From IMG/VR virus record IMGVR_UViG_3300002242_000923, positions 1-53,541 of that record: a DNA stretch of 53,541 bases; one strand, written 5' to 3'. Source of the DNA: a virus. Its lineage: Duplodnaviria; Caudoviricetes. The notes under the pieces were generated by a model that saw only the letters and a program-made list of their open reading frames with translations, did not search any database and had not been told where the DNA came from. This document shows positions 364-51,768 of the stretch, piece by piece (position 1 is the stretch's first letter; each line of letters starts with the position of its first letter). The position numbers and the translations under genes were made by a program.

Positions 364-1818
364 ATGAATAAAATGAACGTAAACGAAACTGTTAACCAAA
401 TCAATTCAGGGCTGGAGCAGGGGATTGTTTCTCCTCAAGAAGTTGAAGCCTTAAACAAAGCTATTACTGCCGGATACGGTGGTGCTGGTAAACCTACTGA
501 CCTTACTTATGGTGGTGTCCTTCAAGCGGAATCTTTAGAGTCAACTCTAAAGTCAATCACGTTTGACATGAAGAACTTAAAGTTCTGGCCTGCAATTAGT
601 GTAGATAAGGCATACAATCTATTTGAGCAATATAATCGTCTAATCGGTTATGGTTCTGATTCTTCACCGTATATCGGAGAAGGTGGAGCACCTAGAGAAG
701 AAGATTCTACTTATATCAGAGACGGTCAAAGGATCGTATTCTTTGGTACTCGTAGGAAAGTATCGCATCAAATGACACTTGTTAGAACTACTGTTGGTGA
801 CATCGTAGCTCAACAAGCAAAAGAAGGAACAATGCACCTTCTTAAAAATGTAGAACGTGAAATGTACTGGGCACATGCTCACTTCACTAACGCAGCTACT
901 GGAGTTCAAAATGGAGCGATCTCTGATCTTCCTTCTAACTCTATTGCTATGAACGGACTTTTACAGCAATTGCTTAAAGGTGACGATGATAGTCAACAAA
1001 AATCACAAGCCTTTGAGGGTTATGGTGAAGTAAGAAGTATCTCTAAAGATTTAGATGGTGCTGTACTTAGCCAAGATGACCTTGAAGATCTTGCAGTTAT
1101 CGCTCTAGAGAACTTCGGTGCTCCAAGCGAATTGCACATCGAGCCACTTGCGCTTAGTTCTTTTATTAAGCAATTTTATCCACAATTCAGATCAGCTCCT
1201 GGTTTAGCTGCACAATCTGTTGGTTATGATGTTAATAAGATGACTACTTCTGCAGGTAACATCGATTTCAAACCAAATCTATTCCTTAGACCAAGAGGTA
1301 GAGCAAGAGCTGTAGGTATTACAGGAGCTCCAGTAGCACCTGTTGTCGGTGCTGTTGGTTCTGCTACTAACCCAGCTGGTTCTTTAACTGCTACTGATTC
1401 TTATGATTATGTAGTAACTGCCGTTAATGATCACGGTGAAGGTTCTGTTTCTAATGTTCAAACTGCTGTTGTTCAAGTTGCTGGTTCTGCACAAATTTCG
1501 ATTGGTGTAGTTGCTGGTGCAAAGTTCTACAAAGTTTATCGTAAGGTAACTGGTGCTGCTGCTGGAACTGAGCAATTTGTAGGTAACTACAGAGCTGCTG
1601 GAGACGTAACTGATTCTGGTGCTAAAGGTGCTGGTCTTGGTGAGGCATTCTTGCTAGACATGAGTTCAGAAGTAATGAGATTTAAGCAGTTAAGTCCATT
1701 AAGTAAAATAAATTTTGCAATTGTAAGTACTGCACTTGAATTCGCAGTTGTTCTGTATGGTGCACTCTTTGTGTATGCTCCACGCTTTAATTGCTTGTTT
1801 AGAAACTTAGGAAAGTAA
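364..1818 (+). CDS. Major capsid protein, SPO1/Twort/K (Herelleviridae)-like fold with Ig-like insertion
   Basis: LNKA-ITAGYG, ESLE, EQYNR and YKVYR segments resemble the phage K/SPO1 capsid; followed by a terminator; true start may be 373 (AGGAG at 359-363). Confidence 0.9.
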   Translation: MNKMNVNETVNQINSGLEQGIVSPQEVEALNKAITAGYGGAGKPTDLTYGGVLQAESLESTLKSITFDMKNLKFWPAISVDKAYNLFEQYNRLIGYGSDSSPYIGEGGAPREEDSTYIRDGQRIVFFGTRRKVSHQMTLVRTTVGDIVAQQAKEGTMHLLKNVEREMYWAHAHFTNAATGVQNGAISDLPSNSIAMNGLLQQLLKGDDDSQQKSQAFEGYGEVRSISKDLDGAVLSQDDLEDLAVIALENFGAPSELHIEPLALSSFIKQFYPQFRSAPGLAAQSVGYDVNKMTTSAGNIDFKPNLFLRPRGRARAVGITGAPVAPVVGAVGSATNPAGSLTATDSYDYVVTAVNDHGEGSVSNVQTAVVQVAGSAQISIGVVAGAKFYKVYRKVTGAAAGTEQFVGNYRAAGDVTDSGAKGAGLGEAFLLDMSSEVMRFKQLSPLSKINFAIVSTALEFAVVLYGALFVYAPRFNCLFRNLGK

Positions 1819-1846
1819 TCTAAGTTATTAAAATTACAAACAAATT

Positions 1847-1871
1847 GGCCCAACTTATGTTGGGCCTTTTT
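1847..1871 (+). terminator. Rho-independent terminator
   Basis: GGCCCAAC-ttat-GTTGGGCC followed by TTTTT. Confidence 0.85.
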
Positions 1872-1902
1872 GTACTAATTTAAGCAGTTATAACCATTAT
1901 CT

Positions 1903-1911
1903 AGGTATAAT
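1903..1911 (+). promoter_or_regulatory. -10 promoter element (AGGTATAAT)
   Basis: TATAAT 1906-1911 upstream of GAGG RBS and TTG start at 1942. Confidence 0.6.
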
Positions 1912-1941
1912 ATATTGTAATAGCACCATAAGAGGTTACAA

Positions 1942-3237
1942 TTGTTTATATATAGAATTAAAAATAAAAAGAATAATAAAATTTATATAGGTCAAACTAT
2001 TAGATCAATAAAAGAACGATGGAGTGCGCATTGTTCGTCATCAACTCGCAATACTAACAACTTATTTCACAATGCAATTGCGAAACACGGGAAGGATTCA
2101 TTTGAGATAGAGGAATTAGCTAAAGCTGATTCGCAAGAACAACTTGATGAATTAGAGAGTTTATATATAAAGTTAAATAATTCACTACACCCGTATGGTT
2201 ATAACCTTAAAACAGGTGGATCAAATGGGGTTGTATATTCAGATGAATCTAAGAAAAAAATGTCTGAGACTAAACTTGGAATACCTATATCAAAAGAAGC
2301 AAAAGACAAGATGAGTAAAGCACATAAGAAAATATGGGACAATGACGATGGAACGCTGTCTAAACAGAGAAGTAAAATAGTTAAAGAAGCATGGAAAAAT
2401 CAAGAATATCGTGAAAAAATATCCGCAGCAAGAAAAGAGTACTGGTCTAATCAGCAAAATAGAGAAAAAGCTAGTGAACGAGGTAAAAAAATGGCATCTG
2501 ATCCTAAGTATATTAAAAAAGTAAGTGATGGTGTTAAGAGTGCTCACAAAAAACCAGAAACTAAAAAGAAAATGCGCAAACATTATGATAAACAAATGAA
2601 ACAAGTAATAGATTCTAATGGCGTTGTGTATCCATCGATTAAGGATGCAGCTGACAAGTTGGGCATCATGCCTAGCAATATAGTTAAAGTTATAAAGGGT
2701 GACTATAAGAAAACAAAAGGATTAGTCTTTAGATATGTTGAAAACAAAAAGACAAACAAAGAATTAGATGTAATATATCAAGAAAAATTAATAAACCCAG
2801 ATTTAAGTCAACAAACTATATATATAGTTTCAGGCATAGCTGGTTCAGGCAAATCATGGGTATGCAATCAGCTTACTAGTAAATTTCATTACATTGCCTA
2901 CGATAAAAATAAGAAAAAAGATCATTTACATCTAATAAGATCAGCTCCCAAAGATAAAATAATCTTATATGATTTAAACATTAACACTTCAACATTTATA
3001 AGAAGAAATTGCGAAGAATTTAATATACGTTTTGTAACTATATTGGGTGATTTTTTACAAGTCAAACAACAATTAAAAGATCGAGGTGGAAAAATAACTA
3101 AAGGGACTTATTCGAGATGGAAAGTTATGAAAAAAAGAGCAAATACCTATGGAGAATGTCAAGGATCATCTTCTGAGATACTTAAATACCTTAAAAATCT
3201 AAAGCTCAATCTAGTACGCAAAATCAATCACGTATAA
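1942..3237 (+). CDS. GIY-YIG homing endonuclease with NUMOD3/NUMOD1-like repeats fused to a C-terminal P-loop domain
   Basis: FIYRIKN..KIYIGQT, GYNLKTGG, SDESKKKMSE repeats, YPSIKDAA HTH, then IYIVSGIAGSGKS Walker A. Confidence 0.8.
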   Translation: MFIYRIKNKKNNKIYIGQTIRSIKERWSAHCSSSTRNTNNLFHNAIAKHGKDSFEIEELAKADSQEQLDELESLYIKLNNSLHPYGYNLKTGGSNGVVYSDESKKKMSETKLGIPISKEAKDKMSKAHKKIWDNDDGTLSKQRSKIVKEAWKNQEYREKISAARKEYWSNQQNREKASERGKKMASDPKYIKKVSDGVKSAHKKPETKKKMRKHYDKQMKQVIDSNGVVYPSIKDAADKLGIMPSNIVKVIKGDYKKTKGLVFRYVENKKTNKELDVIYQEKLINPDLSQQTIYIVSGIAGSGKSWVCNQLTSKFHYIAYDKNKKKDHLHLIRSAPKDKIILYDLNINTSTFIRRNCEEFNIRFVTILGDFLQVKQQLKDRGGKITKGTYSRWKVMKKRANTYGECQGSSSEILKYLKNLKLNLVRKINHV

Positions 3238-3840: not shown

Positions 3841-3988
3841 AACCGAGCGCTGCTGTCCTTGCAAGAGGACATGGAGGAAGAAAGTGGCTGAAACTAAAGA
3901 AAGTGCCAAAAAGGATTTGGAAAAAGCCATACGGTGTATCCAAAAACATATAGACAAAGAACTAACCGAGGATAAAAATAATGGCTAA
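3779..3988 (+). CDS. Small Cys-rich (zinc-finger-like) protein
   Basis: CRDC...CCPC; stop overlaps next start; exact start uncertain. Confidence 0.5.
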   Translation: MGKRMIQTINCRDCGEPTWNRTERCCPCKRTWRKKVAETKESAKKDLEKAIRCIQKHIDKELTEDKNNG

Positions 3989-44660: not shown

Positions 44661-46973
44661 TCATACAGGTTTTGATTCATCATCTAGTTCCTTAACCACA
44701 GTTGATACTGTAATATTTGGTTTTGGCTTTACGAATTCTAAATGAATATCGTTTTTCTTAACTGTTACTTTAACGGTATCTCCTGCATCAACTTCTTTCT
44801 TAAGAATAGGCTTAACTAACATTTTAATTATAGATTCATCAACCTCTCTTTTAATTGGTCTTGCCCCCATCTCAGGATCGAATCCTCGCTCAGCTAGTAA
44901 TTCTTTAGCTTTCTTACTTACACTGAGTTTAATACCTTTAGCTGTTAGCTTTAACTGAACTAACTTAATAAATTTCTCAGTAATCTTAATCATAATATCT
45001 TCAGTAAGACTATTAAACTTAACTGTACCACTCAACTTATTTCGGAATTCAGGTCTAAATGTGTCATTTAAAGTTGTAATCATTGCTTTAGTTTGAGCAT
45101 CTACTTTATTGTTTATTGTAGAAGTTAGACCTAATGGTGCTTTGGTTTTTGAAGCAACGGTCGCTCCAGCATTAGAAGTCATTAAGACTAATACGTTGCT
45201 GAAGTCGACCTTGTTACCTCTGCCGTCTGTCATACTGGCTCCGTCCATGATACCTAGAAGGGCATCATAAACTTTCTCATGTGCTTTTTCTATCTCATCT
45301 AATAGTAATATAGTATGAGGATATTTCATAATCTCATTAGTTAGAGTACCACCTTCATCAGAGCCAATTAGCCCTGGAGATGATCCAAATAACTTAGAGA
45401 CAGACTCTTTATTTGAAAACTCTGACATATTTAATGCAAAGAAATTTGATTTAGTCTGTGCTGCAATTTGTTTTGCCAATTCAGTCTTACCAGTACCTGT
45501 TGGTCCCAATAATAAGAATGAACCTATTGGTTGCCCGATATCTCGTAGTCCAGCTTTAGCGATTTCAACTTGCTCTACCACTTGATCGATAGCGTCATCT
45601 TGTCCAAAAATAACTTTTTTAATATTTTCACTAATGTCTATATAATTAGACTTATTTCTAGACTGCTTGAATGCTGATATGGGTGTACCTGTTGCTATTG
45701 ATATAATTTGCTCTACATCTTCAATTGTAGCATTTGTTCTGGCACTCTTAAGTGTTGTCTTAATTCTCGCGCCAACACTATCTGTAACAGATATTGCTTT
45801 ATCAGGAAAGAATTGCGTAGTTAAATATTGACCACTAAGATTTACAATTCTTTCTAATACATCATCAGAATATGTAACCCCATGATACTTCTCTAAAACA
45901 GGTTTAATACCTTGCTTAAGTATTCTAAGAGTTTCCTTAGCTGTTGGCTCTTCGATCTTAACCATTTGGAAACGTCTCATAAGAGCTTTATCTTTAGTGA
46001 TCTTTTGGTTGTACTCCTCTTCAGTAGTAGCGCCGATACAGCTTAACTCACCATTAGATAAACTAGGTTTAATCATGTTAGCTAAGTCAACACCTTCTTT
46101 GCTACCACCGGCTCCAGCTCCCATTACTTGGTGAACCTCATCAATAAATAAAATACCATTGATTTTATCTTTTTGTTTAAGCTTTTTTAAGTCTTCTAGA
46201 ATACCTTTTACCTTTTCTTCAAATTCACCTCTAAACTTAGAACCAGCAAGTATGTTACCAACGTTAAGTGAATATACTCTTGAATTCTTAAGGGCATCAG
46301 GCACTTGACCTGTTTCAATTAGCGATGCTAGACCTTCAGCCACAGCCGTCTTACCAACCCCTGGTTTACCGACTAACATTGGATTCTTCTTTTTGTAGTG
46401 AGCTAAAATCTCTACTATGCGTTCTACCTCAGGCCGTCTACCGATAAGTGGGTCAATAAGTTTCTTTTTAGCTTTATCACCTAAATCATCACAGTATTCA
46501 ACTAAATTTTTATACTTACCTTTAGCTACTGTTCCACTATTAGGATCGTGTTTGTAACCTGATTTATTTAAAAAATAAGTAATATATGTATCAGGGTCAT
46601 TTGCTGCAACTTTATATGTAGAATTTAAAACATCTTCAAAGAAAATTGGTCTTTTATTATTTTTTGCATCATGCTGCGCATGGTCAAATATCTTTTTTAA
46701 ACCTGGAGTCATAGTTGCATCTAATCTTCCTGGTTTATTCATAAGATTTCGCATCTGAGAAAATATTTCTAATTGAGCATCCTCAACATCAATATGCTTA
46801 TCTAATGCGTCTTTAAGAAAATCTATATCACAACCTCTGGATTTAAGGAATTCTAGATTCTCTTCATAATCATCCTTAAGACAAAACCTTATAAATTTGC
46901 AAGTAGAAATAGTATCTATATTGGATTCTTCTACTACTCCTTCTAATAATTCTTGTGTTATTTTGTTAGTCAT
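44661..46973 (-). CDS. clpA: ClpA-like Hsp100 AAA+ unfoldase
   Basis: IDPLIGR, GKPGVGKT, LFIDEVH, RRFQ, GPTGTGKT, LLDEIEKAH, PLGL loop, GARP; no M-domain. Confidence 0.9.
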   Translation of the reverse strand: MTNKITQELLEGVVEESNIDTISTCKFIRFCLKDDYEENLEFLKSRGCDIDFLKDALDKHIDVEDAQLEIFSQMRNLMNKPGRLDATMTPGLKKIFDHAQHDAKNNKRPIFFEDVLNSTYKVAANDPDTYITYFLNKSGYKHDPNSGTVAKGKYKNLVEYCDDLGDKAKKKLIDPLIGRRPEVERIVEILAHYKKKNPMLVGKPGVGKTAVAEGLASLIETGQVPDALKNSRVYSLNVGNILAGSKFRGEFEEKVKGILEDLKKLKQKDKINGILFIDEVHQVMGAGAGGSKEGVDLANMIKPSLSNGELSCIGATTEEEYNQKITKDKALMRRFQMVKIEEPTAKETLRILKQGIKPVLEKYHGVTYSDDVLERIVNLSGQYLTTQFFPDKAISVTDSVGARIKTTLKSARTNATIEDVEQIISIATGTPISAFKQSRNKSNYIDISENIKKVIFGQDDAIDQVVEQVEIAKAGLRDIGQPIGSFLLLGPTGTGKTELAKQIAAQTKSNFFALNMSEFSNKESVSKLFGSSPGLIGSDEGGTLTNEIMKYPHTILLLDEIEKAHEKVYDALLGIMDGASMTDGRGNKVDFSNVLVLMTSNAGATVASKTKAPLGLTSTINNKVDAQTKAMITTLNDTFRPEFRNKLSGTVKFNSLTEDIMIKITEKFIKLVQLKLTAKGIKLSVSKKAKELLAERGFDPEMGARPIKREVDESIIKMLVKPILKKEVDAGDTVKVTVKKNDIHLEFVKPKPNITVSTVVKELDDESKPV

Positions 46974-46981
46974 TTGACCTC

Positions 46982-47314
46982 CTAAGACTTTTCGATAGTG
47001 AATTTCAATATGTTAATTTGTTCTCTGCGTAATGGCATTAGTTGTATAATGTGTTCTTTAATCATTTCAACAATAACTAATTTCATTTCTGCTACTTCTT
47101 TACTATAAGTACCGCAGATACCTTGACCACTTGAGTCAACTTCTGTAGCTACCTCTAAGGCATCATTATGTGTTAACTCAAATGCTTGTGATAAGATTAG
47201 AATAACCTCATCGTAAGATGTATAATCATTATTATGTACAATGACATCATATTCTGATGGTTTTTTTATTTTTACTTTCTCTTCGACTGCAATATCTGAA
47301 TTTGTTTCGTTCAT
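46982..47314 (-). CDS. clpS: ClpS N-degron adaptor
   Basis: KKPSEYDVIVHNNDYT, SGQGICGTYSKEVAEMK, LKFTIE; directly upstream of clpA. Confidence 0.9.
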   Translation of the reverse strand: MNETNSDIAVEEKVKIKKPSEYDVIVHNNDYTSYDEVILILSQAFELTHNDALEVATEVDSSGQGICGTYSKEVAEMKLVIVEMIKEHIIQLMPLRREQINILKFTIEKS

Positions 47315-47330
47315 GATACCCCTTGATTAT

Positions 47331-47393
47331 ATTAATGTATTGTTGGGAATCGAACCCATTACACCCCATGCCAACTACTGTAATTGTATTAAT
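47331..47393 (-). other. tRNA-like (T-arm) element in the clpS leader
   Basis: GGG-TTCGATT-CCC (47357-47345) adjacent to an ATTACA/TGTAAT stem; no full cloverleaf. Confidence 0.35.
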
Positions 47394-47421
47394 GAGGTTG
47401 GTTTACTCATACATATAATTT

Positions 47422-47432
47422 TCGATTCTGTT
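47422..47432 (-). promoter_or_regulatory. Phage-specific motif AACAGAATCGA
   Basis: Exact copy upstream of clpS-clpA. Confidence 0.75.
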
Positions 47433-47438
47433 TATGGT

Positions 47439-47662
47439 GGGTAGTTGTATAGTTTCAGTTGAAAAGAGAAGAACAAGTTAACAACACCGTCCAGGCTCTT
47501 TAACAAAAGACAAATTACAAATGCATACTATGTGGCTTAACAACGAAACAAAGGACTCTATCGGTCCATAAGTGGTCGCCACGACAAGTGCTAGTTTCCG
47601 TAGAAAGGCTTCAACGCCAGTTGATTTGGTTTCTCATTCCCCCATCCGCTCTACAACTACCC
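47439..47662 (-). ncRNA. Putative structured RNA with periodic UUGU repeats
   Basis: Perfect 11-bp closing stem GGGTAGTTGTA/TACAACTACCC; inner stems; GC-richer than flanks; no ORF in the track. Confidence 0.7.
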
Positions 47663-47673
47663 GAAGTGAGCCG

Positions 47674-48255
47674 TTACAGCAAGCTAATCGCTTGAAGTAG
47701 GGTCACTGTATCTTTACTAAGTGTAATCTTAGTATTGAAGTTTAATGCAAGGAGATCGTCCTCACATGCTTCAATCTTCTTAGATAATTCAACTTGTTGT
47801 TTCTTAAAGTTCTCTTCATCAGAACTTAAAAGAAAATTAGCATCAAACGATGAACGGCTAAATCTATCACCATTAGCTAAGAAAGTCTTATTTCTTTGAG
47901 ACTCATCCTCTAATTCTTTCTCATCTAATGAGTTAAAGCTTTTAAGGAAACTGTTAACAAAAGAAGCTTTGTTCTCTAAGATAACTTTATTAAGAATCTT
48001 TTTATTAATACCACTTTCATTATTTTTCTCAGCAATCTGCTGTCTAATTTTAAACCTAGCATCAATAAGACTATTTAGGTTATCAAAGGCAGTAAAGAAT
48101 TCAGCACGAGCTTGAACTAGCTCAGGTAGAACCTCTGACTGAACATCAGCATTAACTCTTACCGACTTAGATGTACTAAATTGGTGCTTTGCTTGAGAAA
48201 TAAAGCTCTCAAGTTTACTTTCTAATTTTCTTGCTTTTCTTAAATTTAATTCCAT
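47674..48255 (-). CDS. DIP1984/septicolysin-like coiled-coil protein
   Basis: LNLRKA N-terminus, IAEKN, DRFSRS, ELSKKIEACEDDLLALNFNTKI C-terminus; AGGAG RBS. Confidence 0.6.
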   Translation of the reverse strand: MELNLRKARKLESKLESFISQAKHQFSTSKSVRVNADVQSEVLPELVQARAEFFTAFDNLNSLIDARFKIRQQIAEKNNESGINKKILNKVILENKASFVNSFLKSFNSLDEKELEDESQRNKTFLANGDRFSRSSFDANFLLSSDEENFKKQQVELSKKIEACEDDLLALNFNTKITLSKDTVTLLQAISLL

Positions 48256-48537
48256 CTATTTCTCCTGGTTATATTTAGCTATAAAACTTTCTATTTCTGA
48301 TAACGATACAGGCTAATAATAACCAACCTACAAATATTATAAGTAAGACATCTAGCGTTATTGTTTTCCCCACTTCTCACAAAATTTGCATTCCTGCACT
48401 CTAATAAAGTGACGCTTTTCCCCAGTGTTTATATTAATTAAAACTGCAGTATGTAAACCTAAATTAAACAGAAATACTATAAACTTACTATAATTATTTT
48501 GAATGTCAAGCATTTGCGTCTTGTTCATATTGATTTT

Positions 48538-49902: not shown

Positions 49903-51768
49903 ATGACCGAAGAGTCGAAAAGTCTGAAAATTTTAAGTGACATCACAGTTTTTACAAAATATGCGAGATATAATCCAAAGTTAAAAAGAAGAGAAACTTG
50001 GGAAGAACTTTGTTATAGAAACAGAGATATGCACCTAAAGAAGTATCCTCAAATGCATGCTGAAATATTAAATTTATATAACAACTTTGTTATTCCTAAG
50101 AAAGTACTTCCATCAATGCGATCTATACAGTTTGGTGGTAAATCTATAGAGGTTGCGCCAAATAGAATGTACAATTGTTGCTATCTTCCTATTGATGATT
50201 TAAGAAGCTTTTCTGAGTCTATGTTTCTATTATTAGGAGGAACAGGTGTTGGTTATTCTGTTCAAAATAAACACATAGAAAAACTTCCTGAAATACGTAA
50301 ACCAATTAAAACTCGTAGATATTTAATAGGCGACTCAATTGAAGGGTGGGCAGATAGTATTAAGGCCTTATTATCCGCTTATATGAAAGGTAAATCTTTA
50401 CCTATTTTTGACTTTAGAGATATAAGGGAAAAAGGCGCCGCTCTTGTTACATCTGGAGGTAAGGCTCCAGGACCAGAGCCATTAAAGACGTGCTTACATC
50501 AATTGCAAACCATTCTTGATCGTAAGAAAAATGGTGAAAAACTTACTTCTTTAGAGGTTCACGATATGCTATGCTTTATTGCTGATGCTGTTTTAGCGGG
50601 TGGTATTCGTAGAGCAGCAATGATATGTTTATTTGACATGAATGATCAAGATATGCTAACATGTAAATTTGGAGAATGGTGGGAACTTAATCCGCAACGT
50701 GGACGAGCTAATAACTCAGCAGTTGTACTTAGACATAAGATAACCCACGATAAATTTATGGATTTATGGGGAAAAATAGAAGCATCAGGCTCAGGTGAGC
50801 CAGGATTTTATTTTAGCAATGATGCAGATCTTGGTTGTAATCCGTGCTGTGAGATCGCTCTTAAGCCATATGAATTCTGTAACCTAACCGAGATCAACTT
50901 AAGTAATGTAACGTCACAAGAGGATTTGAATGAGCGAGCTAAGGCAGCAGCTTTCTTAGGTACTCTTCAAGCAGGATATACTAGTTTTCATTATTTAAGG
51001 GACATTTGGAAACGAACTACAGAAAAAGAAGCATTAATAGGTGTATCAGGTACTGGTATTGCCTCAGGTGAAGTACTGCAGTATGATTTAAAAGAAGCAG
51101 CTGAAACTGTAAAGACTGAGAATGCACGTGTAGCAAAGATAATTGGAATTAACAAAGCAGCAAGGACAACAGCGATAAAGCCATCAGGGACAACATCTCT
51201 TGTTCTAGGGACCAGTTCAGGGATTCATGCATGGCATTCAGCATATTTCATTAGACGAATGCGTTTAGGGAAGAATGAAGCTATTTATAAATATTTAGCA
51301 GAAAAACACCCTGAATTAGTAGAAGATGAGTATTTTAAACCAGAAACTCAAGCTGTAGTTCAAGTGCCAATTAAAGCTCCTACGAATGGAATATTTAGAA
51401 CAGAAAGTCCAATTGACCTATTAGAAAGAATTAAAAAGTTTTCAGAAGAGTGGATTAAAACAGGTCACCGAAAAGGAGTTAATACTCACAATGTTAGTGC
51501 TACTGTTTCTATTAAAGAAGGTGAATGGGATTTAGTTGGAGCTTGGGTTTGGACAAATAGAAATTGTTTCAATGGCCTTTCATTCTTGCCATATTCAGAC
51601 CATAGTTATGTCCAAGCTCCTTTTGAGTCTATAACAAGTGAACAGTATGCCGAAATGGAAAAACATTTAAACAATATAGATTTAACTGAGATTATTGAAG
51701 ATAATGACGATACAGATTTAAGTGGGGAAATTGCTTGTGGTGGTGGTGGAGGTAGTTGCGAGATCTAA
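49903..51768 (+). CDS. nrdJ: Class II (adenosylcobalamin-dependent) ribonucleotide reductase
   Basis: KYAR..RRETW, YNC, GTGVG, GGIRRAA, NPCCEI, CNL, KPSGT, C-terminal CGGGGGSCEI. Confidence 0.95.
   Translation: MTEESKSLKILSDITVFTKYARYNPKLKRRETWEELCYRNRDMHLKKYPQMHAEILNLYNNFVIPKKVLPSMRSIQFGGKSIEVAPNRMYNCCYLPIDDLRSFSESMFLLLGGTGVGYSVQNKHIEKLPEIRKPIKTRRYLIGDSIEGWADSIKALLSAYMKGKSLPIFDFRDIREKGAALVTSGGKAPGPEPLKTCLHQLQTILDRKKNGEKLTSLEVHDMLCFIADAVLAGGIRRAAMICLFDMNDQDMLTCKFGEWWELNPQRGRANNSAVVLRHKITHDKFMDLWGKIEASGSGEPGFYFSNDADLGCNPCCEIALKPYEFCNLTEINLSNVTSQEDLNERAKAAAFLGTLQAGYTSFHYLRDIWKRTTEKEALIGVSGTGIASGEVLQYDLKEAAETVKTENARVAKIIGINKAARTTAIKPSGTTSLVLGTSSGIHAWHSAYFIRRMRLGKNEAIYKYLAEKHPELVEDEYFKPETQAVVQVPIKAPTNGIFRTESPIDLLERIKKFSEEWIKTGHRKGVNTHNVSATVSIKEGEWDLVGAWVWTNRNCFNGLSFLPYSDHSYVQAPFESITSEQYAEMEKHLNNIDLTEIIEDNDDTDLSGEIACGGGGGSCEI

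Follow-up and report, generated by a model that had tools for sequence, protein, structure and literature searches.

Folded RNAs that carry a word of three or four nucleotides many times over, and that load several copies of a protein, are known from CsrB/RsmZ with CsrA and from the trp leader with TRAP. TRAP is an 11-subunit beta-sandwich ring, and its (G/U)AG triplets are placed 2-3 nt apart. In the type III toxin-antitoxin system ToxIN, the antitoxin RNA consists of tandem direct repeats of about 34-36 nt; the array lies upstream of the toxin gene with a terminator between the two, and the toxin is an endoribonuclease of the ToxN/AbiQ type. Stable RNAs are also known from the tRNA regions of phages, e.g. 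the species 1 and 2 RNAs of T4, and the G/U-rich region of GcvB base-pairs with C/A-rich message sequences. To our knowledge, no RNA partner has been described for DIP1984, and no function was found described for the DIP1984/DUF6847-like fold in the accessible parts of the literature.

The locus described here lies in a window of 53,541 nucleotides, the whole stretch of DNA analyzed (IMG/VR record IMGVR_UViG_3300002242_000923). It consists of a gene for a 193-aa helical protein (47674..48255) and, 3' of it, a UUGU-repeat RNA of 224 nt (47439..47662, first to last base of the closing helix). All features given below are on the minus strand. With a probability of about one half, the two form a co-inherited protein-RNA module of large tailed phages, in which the repeats would dock the protein of the adjacent gene, giving either a ribonucleoprotein or feedback on the protein's own message.

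The stop codon of the gene occupies 47674-47676 and is followed, after 11 nt, by the closing helix P1. Its outer part is a perfect 11-bp stem between GGGUAGUUGUA (47652..47662) and UACAACUACCC (47439..47449), which a previous reading of the DNA from its letters only (the sequence-only reading) had described and which direct reading confirmed. The second, imperfect stem of that reading was also recovered, as the inner part of the closing helix: GGAAUGAGAA (47631..47640) pairs at 9 of 10 positions with UUCUCUUUUC (47461..47470), the latter within a 21-nt stretch identical in the related locus L009. Two small hairpins on the 5' side, GGCGUUGAAGCC and UUUCUACGGAAA (47595..47618), were obtained by constrained folding in a region that is variable among relatives. 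The first conserved single-stranded word, CUUGUC (47583..47588), stands immediately 5' of helix P4, whose arms are GUGGC (47578..47582) and GCCAC (47532..47536). Inside P4 are the hairpin P5, GGACCGAUAGAGUCC (47553..47567; constrained fold, with a variable hairpin at the same place in relatives), and the single-stranded tandem UUGU pair 1, UUGUUUCGUUGU (47540..47551), immediately 5' of the P4 3' arm. They are followed by a UUGU triple, UUGUAAUUUGUCUUUUGU (47503..47520), which is conserved in L009, and by tandem UUGU pair 3, UUGUUAACUUGU (47473..47484), immediately 5' of the closing-helix 3' arm; UUGUUNNUUGUU(C) is found at this last site in both RNA groups (A and B, see below). Four small hairpins had been proposed for the block. 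Those at 47607-47618, 47595-47606 and 47553-47567 fit the comparative model; for the one at 47572-47582 a long-range pairing is preferred, with its GUGGC (47578-47582) forming the 5' arm of P4 opposite GCCAC (47532-47536).

UUGU (ACAA on the plus strand) occurs at 47473, 47481, 47503, 47510, 47517, 47540, 47548, 47584 and 47653, in exact agreement with the sequence-only reading. Nine copies are present, whereas 2000 dinucleotide shuffles of the block average 2.5 (sd 1.36) and only one of them reached nine. The UUGU repeats, whose periodicity had been noted earlier, are conserved among relatives; most lie in junctions that are single-stranded, and pairs with a spacing of 7-8 nt are frequent. 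The block is indeed non-coding and richer in GC: its G+C is 0.40-0.50 versus about 0.27-0.35 in the surroundings, and it holds no ORF of ≥ 40 aa on the gene's strand and a single 42-aa ORF on the opposite strand. Taken alone, the window copy folds no better than its shuffles on the gene's strand (z 0.13), while the opposite strand beats its shuffles (z -2.93); it is thus the comparison with relatives that argues for structure and strand.

The sequence-only reading had proposed to look for a comparable RNA 3' of homologs, for covariation among the copies and for a match in Rfam. From 42 rows, 7 duplicates and 7 loci that were too short or truncated were left out, which gave 28 unique loci, viral or metagenomic, that extend 200 nt or more past the family gene. 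The element is present in 28 of 28, immediately 3' of the stop codon and on the gene's strand: a stretch free of ORFs, with 3-12 UUGU and in every case fewer ACAA, and a closing stem that spans about 140-240 nt. Three cultured phages found independently by tblastn, Caulobacter phage CcrColossus, Vibrio phage 2.275.O and Vibrio phage SJSY21, carry it as well, in unannotated gaps of 213-284 nt. In the 260 nt past the stop codon the median number of UUGU is 6 for family genes and 1 for 197 control ORFs of the same loci, and tandem UUGU pairs were found in 28/33 family loci versus 3/197 control ORFs. The earlier tie between a structured RNA and the helical protein encoded upstream of it is thus seen across many phages.

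The block is a real, conserved structured RNA. A covariance model, R1, was seeded with six group-A sequences and recovered the remaining full-length RNAs of group A, six in number (E 7e-10 to 4e-5), each immediately 3' of the gene and on its strand. Pairing was seen in 91.3% of the cells of a 15-sequence alignment, which had been fitted to the model, and compensatory changes on both sides in 32 of 33 pairs; with slid partners 36.5-50.8% of cells pair, and the observed values were reached in none of 500 shuffles. The sequences of P4 and of the closing helix differ in almost every lineage and their complementarity is kept. A helix at the place of P4 was parsed in 21 of 28 sequences, with at least 5 pairs in about 14 of the 21 and a lineage-specific sequence, and YUUGUC(A) precedes its 5' arm in most relatives. 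For the clade to which the window belongs, RNAalifold gave compensatory change in 18/37 pairs. L002 and L009 carry a block homologous to that of the window, with compensatory changes; the closing helix of L009, GGAUAGCUAUA with UAUAGCUAUCC, shows three compensatory double changes, and of the four clade sequences three keep the GAGAA/UUCUC core of the inner closing helix.

R1 scores group-B copies only marginally (L044, E 0.0096; L022, 0.034; L021, 0.06; L017, 0.064) and misses the window copy and those of L176, L177 and L178. For group B, the register of the MAFFT alignments was too poor for them to serve as a model seed. Membership of the UUGU-repeat RNA family was defined by (a) a start directly after the family gene on the same strand, (b) a long closing helix, (c) the order YUUGUC, P4 5' arm, hairpin, UUGU-N3-4-UUGU, P4 3' arm, and (d) further UUGU groups before the closing-helix 3' arm. 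All four are found in the window RNA, which is placed in one family with group A by shared architecture, motifs and position rather than by an R1 score.

The short repeated words and inverted repeats, together with a setting among nucleotide-metabolism and replication-type genes, might also suggest a site acting as DNA, such as an origin, a priming site or a packaging signal with TTGT iterons. Such a site is very improbable, since the nested helices covary, the orientation to the gene is invariant, and in 22 of 28 RNAs folding is more favorable for the gene's strand than for its complement (mean difference 9.2 kcal/mol), a preference due to G-U pairs that is expected of RNA or a single strand and not of duplex DNA.

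No described Rfam family was matched. Rfam 15 gave no match at the gathering threshold over the whole window, and in a permissive scan of 47250-47750 the single row was a chance SNORD73 match (E = 1) that lies outside the block. Nine related loci yielded tRNAs only, and six more yielded only tRNAs and sub-threshold rows outside the RNA. A blastn search of the block against cultured phages gave no match, and the sequencing runs listed as containing the sequence included no RNA run, and one DNA run that may be from the source sample.

Downstream of the RNA in the window are a promoter-like motif, AAACAGAAUCG (47423..47433), the putative start of the next transcription unit, and clpS (46982..47314; Pfam ClpS, E 9.6e-19), a neighbor that is context and not part of the module. 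The motif begins 5 nt after the stem (47433 downward), not 7 nt as had been given; it occurs six times in the window, always in the same orientation, is also kept 3' of the RNA in L009, and would act as a promoter. Simple promoter and terminator scans of the gene's strand gave nothing useful. The placement ahead of clpS-clpA was found to hold only in part, with a ClpS homologue 3' of the module in 6/29 loci. tRNA genes were present in the examined flanks of 10/33 loci (9 by ARAGORN, and L176 by annotation/Rfam). The module is situated among nucleotide-metabolism and replication-type genes, and often near tRNA genes, RNA ligase and ClpS/ClpA.

The element begins 2-45 nt past the stop codon, in many loci its closing stem leads into U-runs or a canonical terminator, and in the window and L009 the promoter-like motif comes next. 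These features would suit a purely cis-acting 3' untranslated structure, i.e. an exonuclease block, processing site, terminator or insulator with no dedicated protein partner. Covarying helices and conserved UUGU over some 200 nt nevertheless exceed what a stabilizer or terminator needs, and in the window no terminator-like site was detected 3' of the element on the gene's strand, so that this explanation is held to be improbable. Were the element only a 3'-UTR stabilizer, it would be one more cis element.

The occurrence of RNA and gene together was followed in a set with ClpA 70-75% identical, comprising the window and five relatives. The protein is encoded in the window and one relative, and exactly these two carry the UUGU-tandem pattern; the other four, among them a 165.8-kb record rated complete, are without both. 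When the genomes of CcrColossus (280 kb) and Vibrio phage 2.275.O (349 kb) were scanned from end to end, the module was the only place that the pattern matched. In PA5oct and its kin the protein is present, including its N-terminal basic motif, and is followed by a glutaredoxin-like gene instead of the RNA; the pattern was not found anywhere in the 287-kb PA5oct genome, so either the protein can exist without the RNA or the RNA has diverged past the pattern. The annotated ncRNA001 and ncRNA003 of PA5oct, with three TTGT each, were rejected as UUGU-repeat RNAs on reading. A scan that started from the RNA, with a TTGT pattern in three parts run over viral contigs, matched at least 118 stretches; a family gene stood beside 2 of the 80 matches listed, both genes immediately upstream, and 44 of 81 matches were inside long open frames. 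Three non-coding candidates from the TTGT pattern scan proved unrelated on reading. The pattern is too loose and chance matches swamp it, so the scan gives no verdict on RNAs without the gene.

Adjacent genes are co-inherited anyway, and linkage by itself is no proof of interaction. The RNA could instead be an independent, trans-acting one that rides on the upstream transcript, its G/U-rich repeats sponging a host RNA-binding protein or pairing with C/A-rich messages, and the neighboring protein would have another job. The exposure of the repeats in single-stranded junctions, a terminal helix with a U-run after it in many loci (as in many bacterial small RNAs), the PA5oct protein without RNA and the lack of an overall basic charge on the protein are in line with this. 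It is considered unlikely, as the place after one gene family is kept across hosts and across G+C contents of about 0.28-0.60, the other neighbors change, and the window phage's relatives that are without the gene are also without the pattern. Moreover, the regions upstream of the window's genes show no excess of ACAA (0.17 per 40 nt versus 0.23 window-wide), and no small-RNA family of Rfam was matched.

The protein belongs to a family of phage proteins of about 190 aa; a homolog search at E ≤ 1e-3 gave 282 cluster representatives, nearly all full-length. The AlphaFold2 model of the window protein is confidently all-helical (mean pLDDT 96.6), in accord with the sequence-only reading, which had also expected an oligomer. 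The protein was modeled as a homodimer with a score of 0.68, versus 0.00 for the best control; the score used as a mark is reached by 20/30 proteins solved as one-chain pairs and by 1/23 solved single chains. Three runs gave 100% contact agreement, with a partner pLDDT of 91. Conserved basic positions are R6, K7, R9, K10, K14, R33, R67 and R71, in a family that is neutral overall (median pI 6.9), and no recognized RNA-binding domain was detected. The window protein matched no Pfam, PHROG, NCBIfam or PADLOC model (PADLOC was run on five family members). A profile search of solved structures returned only a designed coiled coil (E 0.086), single-protein and ClpS scans of viral contigs found no relatives, and a pattern scan of one genome per prokaryote species found no homologue.

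The protein resembles DIP1984 (DUF6847; 3kdq) only distantly, both being all-helical and of similar size. Foldseek gave 3kdq as the best fold match (E 0.023, prob 0.99, TM 0.38-0.46), and VIA-align aligned 144 residues with Z 10.6 and rmsd 7.7, values in the generic range for helical proteins; besides 3kdq, its wide search returned only generic helical hairpins. In the Atlas, DUF6847/DIP1984 clusters were found at TM 0.52-0.61. Pfam DUF6847 matched 3 of 87 family members (best E 0.037, below the family cut-off) and NCBIfam DIP1984 (NF038048) matched 2 of 87 weakly (best E 0.028). The earlier label "DIP1984-like" thus has 3kdq as top match of two aligners in its favor, but the scores are generic and the NCBIfam model misses the window protein.

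The conservation of the RNA, the covariation of its helices, its strand, its fixed place and its occurrence together with the gene are established here; expression, co-transcription, direct binding and any further function are putative, and the module is probably a ribonucleoprotein or an autoregulatory 3' element. Its first part is the gene for an all-helical protein of about 190 aa, modeled as a dimer, and its second an RNA of 160-235 nt on the same strand, most likely the tail of the protein's own transcript. A long terminal helix closes the RNA body over nested internal helices and hairpins, and three or four UUGU groups, typically UUGU-N3-4-UUGU, are displayed in single-stranded junctions. 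The repeats most likely dock a protein, for which the adjacent gene's product is the best candidate; several dimers may load on one RNA. The complex would either function as a ribonucleoprotein or feed back on the message of the protein.

A wider proposal, put forward tentatively, is that of a widespread new ribonucleoprotein of large and jumbo phages, in which DIP1984-like dimers sit on the UUGU groups of their own 3'-UTR scaffold RNA and act on host or phage RNA metabolism or translation; the frequent setting among tRNA genes, RNA ligase and ClpS/ClpA suggests this action. The record of the PA5oct homologue bears an ESI-MS/MS mark, and ESI-MS/MS was used in the PA5oct paper to identify virion proteins, so the protein could be carried in the virion, perhaps together with the RNA, and be active from the start of infection. 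RNAs of some 200 nt that are this elaborate, with several helices that covary, are seldom found. That this one goes strictly with a single protein family, in phages that infect Caulobacter, Vibrio and many uncultured hosts, suggests an RNA-protein machine or a control circuit not described before, and the DIP1984/DUF6847-like fold gains a testable partner. The module is available in cultured phages, with CcrColossus gp272, NVP2275O_333 of Vibrio phage 2.275.O and Vibrio phage SJSY21.

Among described systems, type III toxin-antitoxin pairs share with this locus a protein gene and a non-coding RNA thought to bind its product, and the sequence-only reading had named such a pair as an option. A repeat-bearing RNA and an oligomeric protein model fit a toxin neutralized by its RNA, but gene order, repeat type and protein fold all differ. 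Tandem Repeats Finder (47300-48300, minimum score 30) gave 0 rows, and a tandem array is thus absent. The RNA lies after the stop codon, not upstream of the gene, in all 28 loci and the three cultured phages; the protein is helical and matches no ToxN-type or defense model. The carriers are large phages of lytic type and the scan of prokaryote species found no homologue, all of which makes a type III-like pair scarcely credible.

Structured RNA candidates have also been predicted from IMG/VR (PMC10690425: 8495 candidates of 29-151 nt, mean 67 nt). They come from the same data source and are the same type of object; the accessible part of that paper does not mention UUGU, and a fragment of the UUGU-repeat RNA may be among the 8495. 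With 3'-UTR-derived small RNAs and the T4 stable RNAs the element shares its place at the end of a coding transcript and, in 10/33 loci, nearby tRNA genes; by description it is larger and more elaborate than the T4 species 1 and 2 RNAs and is tied to one protein family. CsrB/RsmZ and the trp leader resemble it in the repetition of a short word on a folded RNA. Their word, however, is GGA or (G/U)AG and here UUGU, which lies in helix junctions and not in hairpin loops. As candidate partner, a helical protein modeled as a dimer takes the place of CsrA or a TRAP ring, with gene and RNA adjacent and phage-borne. The comparison with TRAP made in the sequence-only reading does not extend to the ring, the protein being helical and modeled only as a dimer, nor to the spacing, as UUGU pairs are 7-8 nt apart. 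The protein and the RNA, each without a described family, probably work together in a new way.

The analysis establishes a new family of conserved structured RNAs that is tightly coupled in genomes to one family of phage proteins. In the window, an AT-rich viral contig of 53.5 kb (completeness ~31%), the protein is encoded by a 193-aa ORF (47674-48255, minus strand), and the UUGU-repeat RNA (47439-47662, minus strand) follows its stop codon directly. The element proposed in the sequence-only reading was recovered: 11 nt after the stop lies a perfect 11-bp helix, legible in the sequence (47652-47662 with 47439-47449), a second helix is paired at 9 of 10 positions (47631-47640 with 47461-47470), the G+C content of the block is above that of its flanks, and nine UUGU are found at their proposed places (2.5 ± 1.4 in shuffles; nine reached in 1 of 2000). 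In line with the proposed novelty, Rfam gave no match at gathering scores in the window, and a permissive scan returned one chance row. ARAGORN called no tRNA or tmRNA, and no tandem repeat was found at the RNA locus. The window's single sequence is little proof of structure, since its fold on the gene's strand is no better than shuffles (z 0.13) and that of the opposite strand is better (z -2.93). A promoter-like word (AAACAGAAUCG) is present next to the helix as claimed, but starts 5 nt past it, not 7. Six copies of this 11-nt word (CGATTCTGTTT; AAACAGAATCG on the minus strand) occur in the window in one orientation throughout (plus-strand starts 21951, 35419, 41927, 42696, 47423 and 48539). 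The inspected copies lie a short distance upstream of minus-strand gene starts, and the word is also kept after the RNA in the related locus L009. A promoter or leader motif specific to this phage is the likely reading.

Gene and RNA are conserved together. The protein of the nearest relative (L002/L009) is 59% identical and its RNA block alignable, with a 21-nt identical stretch and three compensatory double changes in the closing helix. Scans with protein alignments gave 11 viral and 30 metagenome loci; removal of 7 duplicates and 7 loci with a short downstream region or truncated gene left 28 unique cases, the window included. The expectation that homologs carry a comparable 3' flank was borne out in all 28, each having a stretch free of ORFs in which 3-12 UUGU outnumber ACAA, and a closing stem spanning ~140-240 nt (a few automatic stem choices were later corrected by alignment). 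In the 260 nt downstream, the median UUGU count is 6 after 33 family genes vs 1 after 197 control ORFs from these loci, and tandem UUGU-N3-4-UUGU occurs after 28/33 and 3/197, respectively. Searches (tblastn) with two other family members found the cultured Vibrio phage 2.275.O, Caulobacter phage CcrColossus (gp272) and Vibrio phage SJSY21, in all of which the homologue is followed by an unannotated 213-284-nt gap that holds 6-7 UUGU, 0-3 ACAA and a closing helix, a pattern kept even at the 60% G+C of the CcrColossus genome. Across the entire CcrColossus and 2.275.O genomes, the RNA site is the one place where the tandem-UUGU pattern matches, and the same is true of the window and of L002's contig. 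Neither the family gene nor the pattern is present in four relatives of the phage in the window, one of them a complete 165.8-kb record. The exception is PA5oct and its kin, where a 28% identical homologue with the N-terminal motif kept is followed by a glutaredoxin-like gene, and the PA5oct genome is without the tandem-UUGU pattern. Two of the four published PA5oct ncRNAs were examined as candidates for this RNA, and both are unrelated. The record of the PA5oct homologue (EST35_0180; L050 2501-3064) carries the note 'ESI-MS/MS', in the accessible part of PMC7318152 the method for identifying PA5oct virion-associated proteins.

One plan is common to the two sequence subgroups of the RNA (A and B). 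From 5' to 3' it consists of a long closing helix made up of two or three segments, then one or two hairpins on the 5' side, helix P3, a single-stranded YUUGUC, helix P4 around a variable hairpin and tandem UUGUUNNUUGU(C), more UUGU groups, a small hairpin (often with a tetraloop), a final tandem UUGUUNNUUGUU(C), and the closing helix's 3' arm. Six group-A sequences were used to build a covariance model, which recovered the other six full-length group-A RNAs (E 7e-10 to 4e-5) and two cut copies, and all matches lie directly after the family gene on the same strand. Covariation, looked for in relatives, is present: in a 15-sequence alignment 91.3% of cells pair and 32 of 33 pairs have changes on both sides, against 36.5-50.8% pairing for slid partners and 0/500 shuffles reaching the observed values; fitting to the model inflates pairing somewhat, not to the observed extent. 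The P4 arms differ in sequence in almost every lineage (e.g., GUGGC/GCCAC, AAUGACC/GGUCAUU, CUCCCC/GGGGAG, AUUCUC/GAGAAU). Among 32 RNAs, the 5' arm of the closing helix's outer nine pairs takes 29 different sequences, which pair at 0.90 with their own 3' arm vs 0.51 with those of others, a comparison that is partly circular because the ends were picked by best stem. RNAalifold on the window's clade recovered both P4 and the closing helix, and 18 of its 37 pairs are compensatory. In L016 and L027, loci of one subgroup, AGCAAUCCU, located at the stop codon within the 10 nt that follow it, is complementary to GGGAUUGCU in the RNA, ~165-180 nt downstream, and the two could form an additional pairing, long-range or alternative, outside the model.

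The gene's strand reads the UUGU repeats in every locus, is the more stable fold in 22 of the 28 RNAs (mean 9.2 kcal/mol; Wilcoxon p ~1e-4, with non-independent sequences) and in many loci has U-runs or a canonical terminator after the closing helix. It follows that RNA and gene are read in the same direction, and an element acting at the DNA level is improbable. Since just 2-45 nt separate the stop codon from the helix, the RNA is probably part of the family gene's own transcript. A purely cis-acting 3'-UTR element is the explanation ranked third, and is considered doubtful.

No match to Pfam, PHROG, NCBIfam or PADLOC models was found for the window's protein. The family comprises 282 cluster representatives at E≤1e-3 (51 at E≤1e-10), nearly all of ~185-200 aa and aligning end to end; a pattern scan of prokaryotes, one genome per species, found no homologue. 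The AlphaFold2 model (87 family sequences as alignment input; mean pLDDT 96.6) has long helices and two three-residue strands (residues 2-4 and 176-178). The structure 3kdq, of a protein from Corynebacterium diphtheriae that is itself uncharacterised, is the top solved match in both Foldseek (E 0.023, TM 0.38-0.46) and VIA-align (Z 10.6, rmsd 7.7 over 144 aligned residues). In the ESM Atlas the window's protein sits among viral 'hypothetical' clusters, with DUF6847/DIP1984 clusters at TM 0.52-0.61. The label 'DIP1984-like' given to it earlier is thus fair but weak. The same fold is found in BFVD in uncharacterised proteins of CcrColossus, Vibrio phage Vp_R1, Erwinia phage pEa_SNUABM_47 and two giant viruses. 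A two-copy model scored 0.68 (best control 0.00), a mark that 20 of 30 proteins with structures solved as one-chain pairs attained, against 1 of 23 with single-chain structures, with 100% contact agreement between runs and a partner pLDDT of 91. With a median pI of 6.9 the family is neutral overall; basic residues are conserved at positions 6, 7, 9, 10, 14, 33, 67 and 71, and R71, N78 and N172 do not vary among the 87 sequences. The favoured reading, with a probability of about one half, is a protein-RNA module with putative binding, in which the UUGU groups would serve as docking sites for the adjacent dimeric protein and docking would yield either a functional RNP or feedback on the mRNA that encodes the protein.

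Gene and RNA are the sole constant neighbours across loci. An independent RNA acting in trans, as a sponge or by base-pairing, is ranked second and is a tentative possibility. The module was said to stand directly ahead of clpS-clpA, which is true of the window, where a 359-nt gap separates the ORF from clpS (46982-47314, minus strand; E 9.6e-19 to Pfam ClpS) and the minus strand also carries an ATPase gene of clpA type (44661-46973), but not as a general rule, ClpS being next in 6 of 29 loci. The nearest relatives found are five viral contigs (ClpA identity 70-75%); more distant ClpA (~39-43%) occurs in cultured phages, PA5oct-like jumbo phages among them. The phage has its own ClpS and ClpA-type unfoldase (44661-47314), and, beyond the 193-aa ORF, a class II ribonucleotide reductase-like gene (49903-51768, plus strand), vs class I-type reductase genes near clpS in the relatives L003-L006. 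A dNMP kinase lies upstream of the module in 6 loci, and some loci have ThyX or a phosphoribosyltransferase. The family gene of L009 is immediately preceded (1238-3001) by genes for an RNA ligase (with Pfam RNA_ligase and OB domains) and for a calcineurin-like metallophosphoesterase, which look like an RNA-repair-type pair. The fetched flanks of 10/33 loci (nine by ARAGORN, L176 by record annotation and Rfam) contain tRNA genes, often tRNA-Met(CAU). This tRNA recurs within ~1 kb of the module in L012, L025, L010, L013, L023 and L178, one on either side in L012 (2481-2566, 3810-3886) and L025 (1220-1305, 2309-2382). Right after the RNA of L016 is a tRNA with anticodon TTA (3862-3935; ARAGORN 'tRNA-Stop'), which could be a TAA suppressor in that phage. 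Relative to L009, the window has a ~85-nt insertion between the promoter-like motif and clpS (47318-47412, minus strand) that holds a tRNA T-arm-like GGGTTCGATTCCC; ARAGORN and Rfam called no tRNA there and its fold is no better than shuffles (z 0.74), and it may be a tRNA remnant.

Literature searches on DIP1984, DUF6847 and UUGU phage RNA motifs found nothing on this protein-RNA pair, and for non-coding RNA of PA5oct the one lead was the omics paper on that phage (PMC7318152). The accessible part of PMC10690425 describes 8495 candidate RNAs of 29-151 nt from IMG/VR, which may include a fragment of the UUGU-repeat RNA; the available portion of a 2026 preprint on coevolutionary mining deals with other systems. 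The sequence-only reading had likened the pair to TRAP and to type III toxin-antitoxin systems. Both analogies fail on the defining features of those systems, and a type III-like pair is the least probable of the explanations weighed here.
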